A stretch of 64,000 nucleotides of DNA from Escherichia coli (lineage in GTDB: Bacteria > Pseudomonadota > Gammaproteobacteria > Enterobacterales > Enterobacteriaceae), in the NCBI RefSeq assembly GCF_003334255.1, contig NZ_QOWU01000016.1; one strand, written 5' to 3'. The notes beneath the pieces are model-generated. The model was not told where the DNA came from. It was given only the letters and a program-made list of their open reading frames with translations, and did not search any database. Positions 6,972 to 54,629 of the stretch are shown here, piece after piece (within the stretch, counting starts at the first letter, position 1; every line of letters begins with the position of its first letter). A program made the translations under genes and the position numbers.

Positions 6972-7874
6972 TTACTGCTTCAGTTTGGGATCGAGCGCGT
7001 CACGCAGACCGTCACCCATCAGGTTAAATGCCAGCACCGTCAGCAGGATCGCCAGACCCGGGAAGGTCACGACCCACCAGGCGCTTTGCGCGAACTGCAA
7101 CACGTCGGAGAGCATGGTGCCCCACTCAGGCGTTGGCGGCTGTGCCCCCATGCCGAGGAAACCAAGAGCAGCCATATCGAGAATGGCGTTAGAGAAACCG
7201 AGCGACGCCTGAACAATCAGCGGCGCAAGGCAGTTCGGGAAGATGTTAATAAACATCTGACGCATCGCCCCGGCACCCGCCACGCGAGACGCGGTGACGT
7301 AATCGCGGTTAACTTCCACCAGCACGGCGGCGCGGGTTAAGCGCACATAGTGCGGCAAGGCAACGAAGGTCAGTGCCAGCGCGGCGTTACCAATCGACGG
7401 GCCGAAAATTGCCACCAGCACCAGCGCCAGCAGCAGACTTGGCAGCGCCAGCATGATATCGACCACGCGCATAATGATGTTATCGACCAGGCCGCCAAAG
7501 TAACCGGCGATCAGGCCGAGAATAACGCCCATAATCAGCGATAACACAACTACCAGACAGCCAACCAGCAGCGACAGGCGCGCACCGTACATCAGGCGCG
7601 ACAGCACATCACGGCCTACGTCATCGGTGCCCAGCAAGTGCGCCATGCTGCCGCCTTCCTGCCAGGCTGGCGGGGCGAGCAGTGCATCGCGGAACTGTTC
7701 CGCCGGGTTATAGGGTGCAATCCAGTTGGCAAAGATCGCGATGAACAGCACGATGACGACGTAAACCAGCCCGACGACCGCGCCTTTGTTGCGTTTAAAA
7801 TAGTGCCAGAACTCCTGTAACGGGGTCATCGGCACCGGTGCGCTAATCACTTTATTTTCAGTAACCTGTGACAT
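6972..7874 (-). CDS. dppC: Dipeptide ABC transporter permease DppC (300 aa)
   Basis: Polytopic permease ORF of expected length between dppB and dppD. Confidence 0.95.
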
Positions 7875-43346: not shown

Positions 43347-44195
43347 TTATGTGATCGCGCCCAGGTCATCCCTGACAGTAAATCCCAGTTCATTAGAAAT
43401 AGCCTGCGCGGTTTCACGCAGTGGTTTCAGGAGATTTTTCTCTCCCACCTGTTTCAGACGTGATGTCGAAAGCGAAATCGACACGGCGTACGGCACCCGC
43501 CCATGAATATCAAACACCGGAACAGCAATACAGGAGACGCCGAGTTCGTTTTCTTCTCTGTCCATCGCCGCTCCGCTTTCACGAATGTGCGCCAGTTCGT
43601 CGAACATCGCGGGCAGCTCGGTAATGGTATTGCGGGTTAACGGCTGGATCTCATGCTGATGGCTTTCCCAGTATGACTTCACGTAGTCCGGGTGACCAAA
43701 CGCCATGTAGATCTTGCCCATTGCGGAACAGTAGAGCGGCATATGCTGGCCAATATAGGCACGGGTTCGCAGCATCCCGGTTGTGGGTTCCAGCTTATAA
43801 ATCAAAATAGCGTGATCGTCTTCGCGGCTGGAGAAGTTAATGGTTTCACCAGTGGCGATGTTCAGTGCCTCAAGATGCGGAGCGGCGATATGAATGATAT
43901 TCAGCGAAGACAGCGCCTTCTGCCCGACGGCAATAAATTTGGTGGTCAGGCGATAACTCCCTGCGGCAGGCGCGGTGGTCACATAGCCGCAGGACTGTAA
44001 TCCCTGCAATAAGCGATGGACGGTACTCTTATTTAAACCAGCCAGCTCCGAAAGATGCGCCAACGGACAACCGTTTGGATAGTTGCTCAAAATCTCAATC
44101 AGCATCAACCCGCGAAACAGACTCTGGCTTCCGGCTGGACGCTCTTTTTCCTGCGCCATCTCGTTCTCTTTTTTTCCCATCACTTCTTTCCCCAT
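43347..44195 (-). CDS. yiaJ: IclR-family transcriptional repressor YiaJ/PlaR (282 aa)
   Basis: 282-aa ORF with N-terminal HTH (…LAHLSELAGLNKSTVHRLLQGL…), divergent from yiaK. Confidence 0.9.
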   Translation of the reverse strand: MGKEVMGKKENEMAQEKERPAGSQSLFRGLMLIEILSNYPNGCPLAHLSELAGLNKSTVHRLLQGLQSCGYVTTAPAAGSYRLTTKFIAVGQKALSSLNIIHIAAPHLEALNIATGETINFSSREDDHAILIYKLEPTTGMLRTRAYIGQHMPLYCSAMGKIYMAFGHPDYVKSYWESHQHEIQPLTRNTITELPAMFDELAHIRESGAAMDREENELGVSCIAVPVFDIHGRVPYAVSISLSTSRLKQVGEKNLLKPLRETAQAISNELGFTVRDDLGAIT

Positions 44196-50902: not shown

Positions 50903-51755
50903 TCATCCGTTAGGGATTTATGAAAAAGCGCTGGCGAAAGATCTCTCCTGGCCGGAGCGGCTGGTGCTGGCAAAAAGCTGCGGTTTTGATTTTGTCGAAA
51001 TGTCGGTGGATGAAACCGACGAACGGCTCTCACGTCTTGACTGGAGCGCCGCACAAAGGACTTCGCTGGTTGCCGCGATGATCGAAACAGGTGTTGGGAT
51101 CCCGTCGATGTGCCTGTCCGCACATCGTCGCTTTCCCTTTGGTAGCCGTGACGAGGCAGTGCGCGAACGGGCGCGGGAAATCATGAGTAAAGCGATTCGC
51201 CTGGCGCGCGATCTCGGCATTCGCACCATCCAGCTGGCAGGTTATGACGTCTATTACGAAGACCACGACGAAGGCACCCGGCAACGTTTTGCTGAAGGGC
51301 TGGCGTGGGCAGTCGAACAGGCGGCGGCATCACAAGTAATGCTGGCGGTGGAGATTATGGATACCGCGTTTATGAACTCCATCAGCAAATGGAAAAAATG
51401 GGACGAGATGCTCGCCTCACCGTGGTTCACCGTCTACCCGGACGTCGGCAACCTCAGCGCCTGGGGCAATGATGTTCCCGCCGAACTGAAACTGGGCATT
51501 GACCGTATCGCCGCGATCCACCTGAAAGACACCCAGCCAGTCACCGGGCAAAGTCCCGGACAGTTCCGCGACGTGCCGTTTGGCGAAGGCTGCGTCGATT
51601 TCGTTGGCATCTTCAAAACGCTGCATAAACTGAACTATCGCGGTTCTTTCCTGATTGAGATGTGGACCGAAAAAGCCAAAGAGCCGGTGCTGGAGATTAT
51701 TCAGGCGCGGCGTTGGATTGAAGCGCGTATGCAGGAGGCTGGATTTATATGTTAG
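50895..51755 (+). CDS. sgbU: L-xylulose-5-phosphate 3-epimerase SgbU (286 aa), GTG start overlapping the sgbH stop
   Basis: GTG at 50895 followed by [14 protein letters not shown]...; ORF track over-extends upstream in the same frame. Confidence 0.85.
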
Positions 51756-52444
51756 AGCAACTGAAAGCCGACGTGCTGGCGGCGAATCTGGCGCTTCCCG
51801 CTCACCATCTGGTGACGTTCACCTGGGGCAATGTCAGCGCGGTAGACGAAACGCGGCAATGGATGGTAATCAAACCTTCCGGCGTCGAGTACGACGTGAT
51901 GACCGCCGACGATATGGTGGTGGTTGAGATAGCCAGCGGTAAGGTGGTGGAAGGCAGCAAAAAACCCTCTTCCGATACACCAACGCATCTGGCGCTCTAC
52001 CGTCGCTATGCCGAAATTGGCGGTATTGTGCATACCCACTCGCGCCACGCCACCATCTGGTCACAGGCCGGGCTGGATCTCCCCGCCTGGGGCACCACCC
52101 ACGCCGATTATTTTTACGGTGCCATCCCCTGCACGCGACAGATGACCGCAGAGGAGATTAACGGCGAATATGAATATCAGACCGGCGAAGTGATCATTGA
52201 AACCTTCGAAGAACGTGGCAGGAGTCCGGCACAAATCCCGGCGGTGCTGGTGCATTCTCACGGCCCGTTCGCATGGGGTAAAAACGCCGCCGATGCCGTG
52301 CATAACGCCGTAGTACTCGAAGAATGCGCCTATATGGGTCTATTCTCGCGCCAGCTTGCGCCGCAGCTCCCTGCGATGCAAAACGAACTGCTGGATAAGC
52401 ACTACCTGCGTAAGCATGGGGCCAATGCCTATTACGGGCAGTAA
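51749..52444 (+). CDS. sgbE: L-ribulose-5-phosphate 4-epimerase SgbE (231 aa)
   Basis: Class II aldolase/epimerase-like ORF, 231 aa, overlapping sgbU stop. Confidence 0.92.
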
Positions 52445-52475
52445 TCCCTCACGCCGGGGCTTCATCGCCCCGGCA

Positions 52476-52790
52476 CTACGAATTGATATGTTCCTTGCTG
52501 TAACGCCGCTTCCACGCTGCTGGCGTTAAACCAGTATGTTTCTGAAAAATCTGCCGGAAATAGCCAACGTCATTAAACCGTATTGCATGGAGCAGGCCGA
52601 CAACGTCGAGTCACTGCATAACCTGTTGCTGCCCGCCGATGCGCCATTTACGACATTTGAAGGCAAGGGATTGTTCAGCCATAAGATCCTGATTCAGACG
52701 CCAGGTTCCCGGTATGAACAGAGCAATCCAGAGCAACAACCTTTGTGGCATTACGACGGAGCACCAGCCGCACCGACATCCACCGGTGAA
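52476..52790 (-). pseudogene. Remnant of an AraC/XylS-family regulator: C-terminal HTH region only, broken by an in-frame TGA
   Basis: Minus-strand translation by hand: …NQDLMAEQSLAFKCRKWRIGGQQQVMQ*LDVVGLLHAIRFNDVGYFRQIFQKHTGLTPAAWKRRYSKEHINS*; no N-terminal domain or start codon; abuts the yiaT stop. Confidence 0.45.
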
Positions 52791-53531
52791 TTAAAAACGC
52801 CAGCTCACCCCGGTGACAAAGGTAAAACTCTCATTACGATCAATCATCGGGCTGTCGGTAATCTCTTCCGGCAGCTCGCTGTATCCTGCGCTCGCCATCA
52901 ATACGACGTGCTCTCCTATCGGGTATTTTGCCGTCAGGCTGACATAGGGCACCCAGGCATCCTGCGCGGAATAACTTGCCAGACCGCTACGACGGGACTC
53001 ACTCTCTGAAATGCCATAGTAATAGTCACTGAAATTCTCGTCATAATAGAGAACGCCCAGCGCAGGTGTCAGCGACAGACGACCTATCTGCATTTTGTGG
53101 AATACCGATAGCTCCCCCACCCAGCCGTTGCTGTTATCCAGAACGTCCGCAGCTGCAGAGGCTTTCACGGTTCCCCAACGCTCGTGGTGATACCAGGCAA
53201 CCCCCGCCATAGCCGTACTATCACGCTTATCAAGCTGTTGCATGGCATAATCGTCATTATCGGTAGGGTCAAATTCCAGCGGCATCCAGGATGCGGTCAG
53301 GCTAAGTTCATTTTTTTCACTTTGCGACAGAATAAAACCTAACGTGGTCTGACGAACATAAAAAGTATCACCTTCATAACTAATCAGCGGAATTGCCTTC
53401 GTATTTTCATTATAACCGCGATAAGGCGATTCATTATAAGCCGCACCAGCACCAATGGATAATTCAGAAGCAGTTGCGCTTGCCATAAAAGGCAACGCAA
53501 ATAACGCCACAATATTGCGATTAATTAACAT
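52791..53531 (-). CDS. yiaT: Outer-membrane MipA/OmpV-family protein YiaT (246 aa)
   Basis: Signal peptide MLINRNIVALFALPFMASATA; beta-barrel-like with C-terminal …SWRF. Confidence 0.88.
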   Translation of the reverse strand: MLINRNIVALFALPFMASATASELSIGAGAAYNESPYRGYNENTKAIPLISYEGDTFYVRQTTLGFILSQSEKNELSLTASWMPLEFDPTDNDDYAMQQLDKRDSTAMAGVAWYHHERWGTVKASAAADVLDNSNGWVGELSVFHKMQIGRLSLTPALGVLYYDENFSDYYYGISESESRRSGLASYSAQDAWVPYVSLTAKYPIGEHVVLMASAGYSELPEEITDSPMIDRNESFTFVTGVSWRF

Positions 53532-53654
53532 GTCCGGTATTCCATTTTAAAATAAGATAAAAAAGAGTCGGCATAATAATGCTTACAATTTCTCCGGTGC
53601 AAGATTCATATTTATATAGTAATATATAAAATTATATATAATTGGGCTGTTGCG

Positions 53655-54629
53655 ATGACAAAATTACAACTTAAGTACCGGGAGTTAAAAATTATCTCGG
53701 TAATCGCTGCCAGTGAAAATATCAGCCATGCCGCGACTGTACTTGGCATCGCACAGGCCAACGTCAGCAAATATCTTGCTGATTTTGAATCAAAAGTGGG
53801 TTTAAAAGTCTTTGACCGAACCACCCGGCAGCTGATGCTCACACCTTTTGGCACCGCGCTGTTACCGTACATCAACGACATGCTGGACAGAAACGAGCAA
53901 CTTAATAATTTTATTGCAGATTATAAGCATGAGAAACGTGGTCGGGTCACCATCTACGCCCCAACCGGCATAATTACCTATTTATCCAAACATGTAATCG
54001 ATAAAATTAAAGATATCGGTGATATCACCTTATCGCTAAAAACCTGCAATCTTGAGCGTAATGCCTTTTATGAAGGCGTCGAATTTCCTGATGATTGTGA
54101 TGTTTTAATCAGCTACGCTCCACCAAAAGATGAATCGCTGGTTGCCAGTTTTATTACCCAATATGCCGTAACCGCTTATGCCAGCCAGCGCTATCTTGAG
54201 AAACATCCCATTAGCCGTCCTGACGAACTCGAACATCACTCCTGTATTTTGATCGACTCGATGATGATCGACGACGCGAATATCTGGCGCTTCAACGTCG
54301 CCGGGAGTAAAGAGGTGCGGGATTATCGCGTGAAGGGAAATTACGTTTGCGACAACACGCAATCTGCGCTGGAGCTGGCACGAAATCACCTGGGGATTGT
54401 GTTTGCGCCAGACAAAAGTGTGCAGAGCGACCTGCAAGACGGCACGCTGGTGCCCTGCTTTCAGCAACCCTATGAATGGTGGCTGGATCTGGTGGCTATC
54501 TTCCGTAAACGGGAATACCAGCCCTGGCGGGTCCAGTATGTGCTGGATGAAATGCTGCGTGAAATTCGCCACCAGCTTGCTCAGTCGCAGCAACTGCGGC
54601 CTGAACAAGCGGCGGAAAGCGAAGATTAA
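53655..54629 (+). CDS. yiaU: LysR-family transcriptional regulator YiaU (324 aa)
   Basis: N-terminal LysR HTH (…[38 protein letters not shown]…), divergent from yiaT. Confidence 0.9.

Follow-up and report, generated by a model that had tools for sequence, protein, structure and literature searches.

The interval between sgbE and yiaT in Escherichia coli genomes of the K-12 type raises the question of what became of a transcriptional regulator whose last codons can still be read there: whether the gene eroded where it stood, was cut away, or left behind a sequence that has since acquired a use, and which neighbouring genes it once controlled. The interval, at positions 52476-52790, was studied within a stretch of 64,000 nucleotides (RefSeq assembly GCF_003334255.1, contig NZ_QOWU01000016.1) which is referred to as a whole as the window and to which coordinates refer unless another sequence is named. 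An earlier note on this DNA had described the interval as the decayed remnant of an AraC-family regulator, possibly of the adjacent sugar operon or of a deleted cluster. The analysis presented here leads to the reading that the interval is a two-piece deletion scar, left by the loss of a cassette of regulator, symporter and GH127 genes and having no function of its own, a reading to which a probability of about 0.95 is assigned and against which no contradicting evidence was found.

Position and anatomy of the interval

Sequence comparison finds positions 52300-52900 verbatim in E. coli K-12 MG1655, where the NC_000913.3 coordinate equals the window coordinate plus 3,698,337. Two pseudogenes are already annotated there between sgbE and yiaT, namely ysaC (b4648) at 3750813-3750914 on the minus strand (window 52476-52577) and ysaD (b4649) at 3750918-3751109 on the plus strand (window 52581-52772), and because the sequence is identical and the coordinates coincide, the correspondence with ysaC and ysaD that the earlier note had suggested is correct. 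The two pseudogenes of MG1655 do not differ from the window in sequence or position; they form an ordinary, non-functional deletion scar. The RefSeq record gives them no product name, and the parent genes, the exact junctions and the population context are added here. In a K-12-type genome the PGAP labels are “AraC family transcriptional regulator, missing N-terminus” for the ysaC piece and “hypothetical protein, missing N- and C-terminus” for the ysaD piece. Homology blocks and junctions were mapped by alignment against O157:H7, ECONIH5 and strain C, and the features obtained, together with the annotated flanking genes, are as follows.

51749..52444, plus strand: sgbE (L-ribulose-5-phosphate 4-epimerase), which closes the yiaK-sgbE operon and flanks the scar on the left (ORF list and annotation)
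52453..52474, no strand: GC-rich hairpin GCCGGGGC-TTCATC-GCCCCGGC, in the gap separating the stop codons of sgbE and the AraC-family gene, which converge here
52464-52579: homology block 1, 3' end of the AraC-family gene, 100% identical to ECONIH5 and 97% to O157:H7
52476..52579, minus strand: ysaC (b4648), 3' end of the AraC-family regulator gene (stop codon 52476-52478, 33 codons at 52479-52577, and 2 nt of codon 238)
52579..52580, no strand: junction of deletion 1, 4,021 bp missing (breakpoint contexts and homology blocks)
52580-52769, plus strand: homology block 2, internal GH127 sequence, 88-89.5% identical to intact alleles
52580..52769, plus strand: ysaD (b4649), internal GH127 fragment (63 codons at 52581-52769, residues 559-621 of 656-659)
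52764..52769, no strand: CCAGCC, a 6-bp direct repeat of which one copy survives, marking the junction of deletion 2 (210 bp missing; overlapping alignment ends)
52764 onward: homology block 3, yiaT 3' flank, 98.5-99.3% identical
52770..52790, no strand: residual yiaT 3' flank with the surviving hairpin arm CGCACCGAC (in intact strains the hairpin follows yiaT)
52791..53531, minus strand: yiaT (MipA/OmpV-family outer membrane protein), flanking the scar on the right (ORF list and annotation)

A plus-strand open reading frame of 157 codons at 52536-53009 also crosses the interval; it begins antisense within the AraC fragment, follows the GH127 frame of ysaD and continues antisense to yiaT, and is most likely spurious.

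The two gene fragments and the deletions between them

Translated on the minus strand, 52476-52790 reads ...QQQVMQ-stop-LDVVGLLHAIRFNDVGYFRQIFQKHTGLTPAAWKRRYSKEHINS-stop, with an in-frame TGA, so that the C-terminal AraC peptide and the stop codon ahead of it are as the earlier note gave them and its hand translation was in the correct frame. The ysaC peptide is identical at all 33 of 33 positions to the end (residues 239-271) of a complete AraC-family protein of 271 aa from ECONIH5 (E 1e-23), and the last 33 residues match the final 30 positions of the NCBIfam RhaR (E 3e-4) and AraC (E 6e-4) models, which bears out the homology to the AraC family. At the nucleotide level, positions 52300-52579 show 0 differences in 280 bp from the chromosome of ECONIH5, where the gene is intact. 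The intact regulator consists of a Pfam AraC_binding (cupin) domain at residues 26-132 and an HTH_18 domain at residues 184-263; the first of these falls in the deleted 4,021 bp, and of the second ysaC keeps the last 25 of 80 positions. A start codon, a promoter, the ligand-binding domain and the first helix-turn-helix are all missing from ysaC, as had been noticed for the start codon and the N-terminal domain, and what had been taken for a “textbook” C-terminal helix-turn-helix of 70 aa is in fact a piece of 33 aa.

The AraC homology also covers less of the interval than had been supposed, being confined to 52464-52579 (52476-52579 for the coding part), which is one third of it. The 11 residues between the TGA and FND... 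have no AraC match, and the stretch of 59 residues in frame ahead of the TGA resembles the intact regulator at chance level only (E 1.9). The other two thirds of the interval belong to a second gene fragment, on the opposite strand to ysaC. Translated on the plus strand, 52581-52769 is identical at 56 of 63 positions to residues 559-621 of an intact 659-aa GH127 protein (E 8e-39); at the nucleotide level ysaD shares 88-89.5% identity with intact alleles, and a patch in strain Z1322HEC0009 matches it at 100%. The in-frame TGA is not the decay mutation it had been taken for, since it lies in antisense GH127 sequence beyond the junction at 52579/52580. The fragment ysaD comes from the C-terminal, non-catalytic part of its parent protein and contains no catalytic or zinc-site residue; the GH127 active-site residues, which are conserved in the intact allele (segment queried: residues 301-450), lie in the deleted part, ysaD beginning only at residue 559.

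Two deletions separate these remnants from the intact arrangement. Deletion 1, of 4,021 bp, is blunt and without microhomology, its junction reading ...ATTAAACC|GTATTGC..., and with it went codons 1-237 of the regulator, the promoter region between the divergent genes, the MFS/GPH symporter gene in its entirety and codons 1-558 of GH127. Deletion 2, of 210 bp, lies between two CCAGCC repeats, one copy of which is left at 52764-52769; it took the final 35-38 codons of GH127, a hairpin and a REP element, as well as one arm of the yiaT hairpin.

The intact cassette and the role of its regulator

That the fragment is the scar of a lost regulator is borne out by other E. coli strains, in which the parent AraC-family gene is intact, and the search for such strains that the earlier note had proposed finds them (ECONIH5, for example), with an MFS/GPH symporter gene and a GH127 gene as neighbours. 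The order in ECONIH5, strain C (NZ_CP029371.1) and Z1322HEC0009 is yiaK...sgbE rightward, the regulator leftward, the MFS gene and GH127 rightward, and yiaT and yiaU leftward. The spacer separating regulator and MFS gene in E. coli measures 225 bp. The transporter passes the TIGR00792 cut-off for GPH:cation (glycoside-pentoside-hexuronide) symporters, with 331.9 bits vs 231. The intact GH127 protein aligns over its full length with the beta-L-arabinofuranosidases of PDB entries 4QJY (E 9e-233) and 3WKW (E 2e-149); the only NCBIfam GH127 model matched, that of aceric acid hydrolase, scores below its cut-off (456 bits vs 950). The residues aligned to E322, E338, C340, C417 and C418 of HypBA1, which we take to be the catalytic Glu/Cys and the Cys3-Glu zinc site, are all conserved in the intact E. 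coli protein. Two length alleles of GH127 occur, of 659 and 656 aa (locus L007, 11717-11728, vs locus L006, 11717-11719); strain C and Z1322HEC0009 have GAG in place of the TAG stop codon, and the translation is three codons longer.

By homology, the regulator would sense a sugar and activate the divergent operon, the GPH-family symporter would import a small glycoside (a small beta-L-arabinofuranoside), and the GH127 enzyme, cytoplasmic on this model, would free L-arabinose from beta-L-arabinofuranosides of plant glycoproteins; K-12 would then have lost whatever capacity of this kind the intact cassette confers. No paper was found that tests the substrate or the regulation of the intact E. 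coli cassette. GH127 has been noted as an accessory gene correlated with invasiveness (PMC11879602).

The cassette was followed beyond E. coli in a cross-species scan that took one genome per species and yielded 80 loci. The trio of regulator (minus), MFS gene (plus) and GH127 (plus) is kept in order and orientation in 68 of these 80 loci, in all of which the divergent spacer between regulator and MFS gene measures 215-383 bp. The flanks are more variable: sgbE lies directly to the left in 25 loci, yiaT-yiaU to the right in 23, both in 13 (from Citrobacter, Pseudocitrobacter, Lelliottia, Huaxiibacter and Enterobacter) and neither in 33. This survey points to the full arrangement as ancestral and to the trio as the conserved unit. 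Two observations on the survey itself may be recorded. Locus L032, from a record titled Chryseobacterium sp. 18061, contains an Enterobacteriaceae-like trio, and the assembly is probably mislabelled or contaminated, because the protein identities and positions are the same as those of the Citrobacter locus L031 from the same project. Six Bradyrhizobium loci (L080, L082-L084, L087 and L088) carry GH127 at 71% amino acid identity without AraC and MFS partners.

The survey also bears on which genes the lost regulator controlled. That it acted on the adjacent yiaK-sgbE operon, its loss helping to explain why this operon is cryptic in K-12, is an idea with some appeal, in that the regulator gene lies directly behind sgbE, in convergent orientation, both in E. 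coli and in 25 of the loci from other species, and in that both clusters concern plant-derived L-sugars (PMC6958661 for the yia operon). In all 68 trio loci, however, the regulator is divergent from the MFS-GH127 pair; the trio stays in place in 427 O157-type genomes from which yiaK-sgbE has been deleted, and it is found in 33 loci with neither sgbE nor yiaT-yiaU adjoining. The yiaK-sgbE operon has, moreover, its own divergent IclR-type repressor, PlaR/YiaJ (PMC6958661). Control of yiaK-sgbE is accordingly regarded as highly improbable. Because the trio is conserved, because it is intact in O157:H7 without plaR'-sgbE, and because the yia operon has PlaR/YiaJ, the regulator would have served the deleted MFS-GH127 pair and not the yiaK-sgbE operon. 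Of the two roles offered in the earlier note, regulator of a deleted cluster is thus the one that holds, given a gene divergent from MFS-GH127 in a trio that outlives yiaK-sgbE, and the notion that its loss accounts for the cryptic sugar operon is corrected.

Structural haplotypes in the species

The interval was classified in a census of 5,426 complete E. coli genomes, in which the following types were counted.

K-12-type scar, with both junctions: 2,461/5,426 (45%)
Full type, sgbE beside the intact regulator (sgbE-AraC-MFS-GH127-yiaT): 1,893/5,426 (35%)
O157-type junction, cassette kept and plaR'-sgbE lost: 427/5,426 (8%)
sgbE joined directly to aldB (Nissle 1917, ATCC 25922): 481/5,426 (9%)

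The scar is thus absent from 55% of the genomes, and the 3' part of GH127 is intact in 2,316. The O157 type results from an 8,987-bp deletion which begins inside plaR (window 43477-43480) and ends at 52464-52467, in the hairpin behind sgbE; the two sites share ATCG and match at 9 of 11 positions when extended. Everything from the plaR N-terminus through sgbE is gone in this type, and a 141-bp plaR remnant abuts the intact AraC gene (locus L002, 7734-7876). The sgbE/aldB type is without the cassette and without yiaT, yiaU, yiaV and yiaW; its junction in ATCC 25922 (locus L008, 5265-5312) is the same in Nissle 1917. On these counts the sgbE-yiaT interval is a hot spot for deletions: at least four structural haplotypes are common in the species, and within this structural polymorphism the K-12 scar is one of the common alleles.

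Rarer variants were also seen. In E. coli strain C9 (locus L003, 13054-13959) an IS1 replaces the stretch from early in the MFS gene to the interior of yiaU, and the AraC gene is intact and accompanied by the O157-type plaR remnant. Some genomes of the full type (XJW9B263, 100248) have the regulator annotated only as “helix-turn-helix domain-containing protein”, and this bare annotation suggests that further truncated or frameshifted regulator alleles exist among full-type genomes.

A cassette of regulator, GPH symporter and probable beta-L-arabinofuranosidase has on this evidence been lost by K-12 and kept by about 43% of complete E. coli genomes. Strains that retain it include O157:H7, and derivatives of B/BL21 retain at least the 3' part of GH127, so that presence or absence of the cassette bears on comparisons of how laboratory strains grow on plant-derived glycans.

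The divergent GH127 core

The 190-bp GH127 core of the scar has 20-23 differences from every intact E. coli allele examined, a divergence of about 11%, while intact alleles differ from one another at 1-8 positions. The adjoining AraC fragment shows 0 differences from ECONIH5. Given the distance of the core from all of these alleles, the scar was not cut recently from any sampled intact allele. Across about 2,458 scar genomes the identity of the core is at least 99%, and it is invariant in the K-12-type strains ET245, M18 and EA7, which show 5-6 differences in the AraC fragment and up to 28 in 305 bp at the 3' end of sgbE (about 9%; window 52140-52579 compared). The sgbE gene is unusually polymorphic in E. 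coli.

Eighteen sites separate the core from all three intact E. coli alleles that were compared. Six of the 18 share the state of E. whittamii and Escherichia sp. E1V33, all six being synonymous; nine are unique to the core, six of these being non-synonymous, among them W->L, G->V and Y->S, which alter residues that are identical in the other five Escherichia alleles compared; and the remaining three are three-way differences. Neutral decay since the deletion was considered as the sole cause of the divergence and set aside, there being no variation among K-12-type strains and 6 of the 18 sites having the outgroup state. A source in another species was also sought at the DNA level, where only two Escherichia loci, those of E. 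whittamii and E1V33, align over most of the length, and they are no closer, with 25 differing sites.

Tentatively, and at somewhat less than even odds, ysaD may be seen as a “frozen” relic of a deep-branching GH127 allele which is no longer found intact in the 5,426 sampled genomes and which was spread by recombination in the flanks. The two junctions would shield the core from homologous exchange, and it would have been carried along unchanged while the scar spread by way of its flanks; the AraC fragment could match an intact allele exactly because the flanks recombine with the species pool.

One genome bears on the core from the other side. Strain Z1322HEC0009 (GCF_037622475.1, NZ_CP148570.1) has an intact 659-aa GH127 gene which contains the core at 100% identity, and it is the only one to do so among the 2,316 genomes with an intact GH127 3' part. 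At 20 sites it agrees with K-12 against strain C, and all of these lie at 7208-7384 of locus L009, within the scar borders at 7201-7390 (window 52580-52769); the nearest other differences lie 231 bp upstream and 24 bp downstream. Because the borders of the patch coincide with those of the scar, the patch appears to be a conversion tract that a functional gene received from a scar-type donor, unless it is an artefact of assembly. The alternative that Z1322HEC0009 is a surviving ancestor of the scar allele was judged less likely, the K-12-like differences being confined to the scar borders. If the conversion reading is true, it would represent a case of a pseudogene fragment converting a functional gene.

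Transcription signals and possible co-option

The scar and its surroundings were examined for structure and transcription signals. The hairpin at 52453-52474 folds with -22.2 kcal/mol (z = -3.0); it has no U tract or T run on either strand and is not reported by the terminator scan. Its right arm, from 52464, coincides with the right breakpoint of the O157:H7-type deletion and is where O157:H7 homology starts. An Rfam scan of 51500-54000 at E <= 1 yielded no family at threshold; a CRISPR-DR16 match on the hairpin, with 19 bits vs a gathering score of 35, was taken as chance. The promoter and terminator scan of 52300-52900 reported no promoter-like site in 52476-52790 and two weak terminator-like sites, both inside the AraC fragment. 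Behind yiaT, intact strains have a strong hairpin, then a REP element and a second hairpin (z = -4.5; locus L006, 11720-11855), while the K-12 sequence there folds like its shuffles (z = 0.42). Because deletion 2 removed the structures behind yiaT, yiaT transcripts probably run into the scar, where a terminator for yiaT may be absent.

These results allow an assessment of the proposal that the scar has been co-opted and is under selection, either as a 3' UTR or terminator region of sgbE or yiaT or as the source of a small peptide or RNA. Two observations would fit it: the invariance of the core in divergent K-12-type backgrounds and across the scar genomes, and the probable entry of yiaT transcripts now that deletion 2 has taken the yiaT hairpin. 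A single recent origin predicts the invariance equally well, however, and the scar has no Rfam family, no internal promoter-like site and no more folding than shuffled sequence; moreover, 55% of genomes do without it. The published MG1655 derivative RB290 is listed as carrying a reporter cassette at the ysaC/ysaD junction (PMC12361893, strain table), which also speaks against an important role. That entry was the only mention of ysaC or ysaD found in the literature, the other matches being to unrelated genes of the same names in Lactococcus and Yersinia. Co-option is accordingly given only a slight chance.

Origin of the scar

The history proposed for the deletion scar begins with an enterobacterial ancestor which would have had the order plaR, yiaKLMNO-lyxK-sgbHUE, the AraC-family regulator divergent from the MFS/GPH symporter and GH127 genes, yiaT and yiaU. 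In the lineage leading to the K-12-type haplotype, the blunt 4,021-bp deletion brought an internal GH127 segment of 190 bp (plus strand) up against the final 104 bp of the regulator gene (minus strand), and the 210-bp deletion at the CCAGCC repeats took the GH127 3' end together with the structured spacer before yiaT. Left over are 33 codons from the regulator's second helix-turn-helix (ysaC) and 63 GH127 codons (ysaD), with no start codon or promoter on either. None of the 5,426 genomes has deletion 1 but not deletion 2.

Decay in place, which the earlier note had implied, would require 52476-52790 to have once been filled, as far as yiaT, by a complete AraC-family gene that nonsense and other point mutations then eroded, and the in-frame TGA and the missing start codon are what such erosion would leave. 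The residues upstream of the TGA are nevertheless unlike the intact regulator, the opposite strand of that DNA matches GH127 coding sequence at 88-100% identity, the AraC part has 0 substitutions relative to the intact allele, and 315 bp is far too short for an 816-bp gene. The regulator was lost by a clean deletion, “decayed” is not an apt description of a piece that is 100% identical to the intact ECONIH5 allele, and gradual erosion, refuted by these comparisons, can be given almost no credence. The converse reading, with the K-12 state ancestral and the cassette an insertion gained by other strains, can point to the scar as the commonest single haplotype (45%), but it is refuted by the anatomy of the fragments, K-12 having headless and tailless pieces of two genes which are whole elsewhere, and the full sgbE-trio-yiaT-yiaU order occurring in 13 loci of five other genera, so that its probability is negligible.

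Comparison with known systems

The layout of the intact regulator is that of AraC, RhaR, RhaS and MelR, a cupin AraC_binding domain at the N-terminus being followed by HTH_18 at the C-terminus, and like sugar-responsive activators of the AraC/XylS family it is divergent from the catabolic operon that it presumably controls. It falls below the equivalog cut-offs of all named regulators, the best being AraC with 59 bits vs 208, and because the score is so far under these cut-offs it is best classed as an uncharacterised member of the AraC/XylS family. Unlike AraC/XylS proteins, the 33 residues of ysaC cannot bind DNA or ligand.

The intact E. coli GH127 protein can be aligned end to end with HypBA1 of Bifidobacterium longum (3WKW) and with the Geobacillus enzyme (4QJY), while the fragment in the window differs from both in that the whole catalytic domain is gone. 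The genomic partners also differ: in E. coli GH127 is accompanied by an MFS/GPH symporter and an AraC regulator, whereas the arrangement given for B. longum in PMC7263609 is an ABC transporter with GH121 and GH43.
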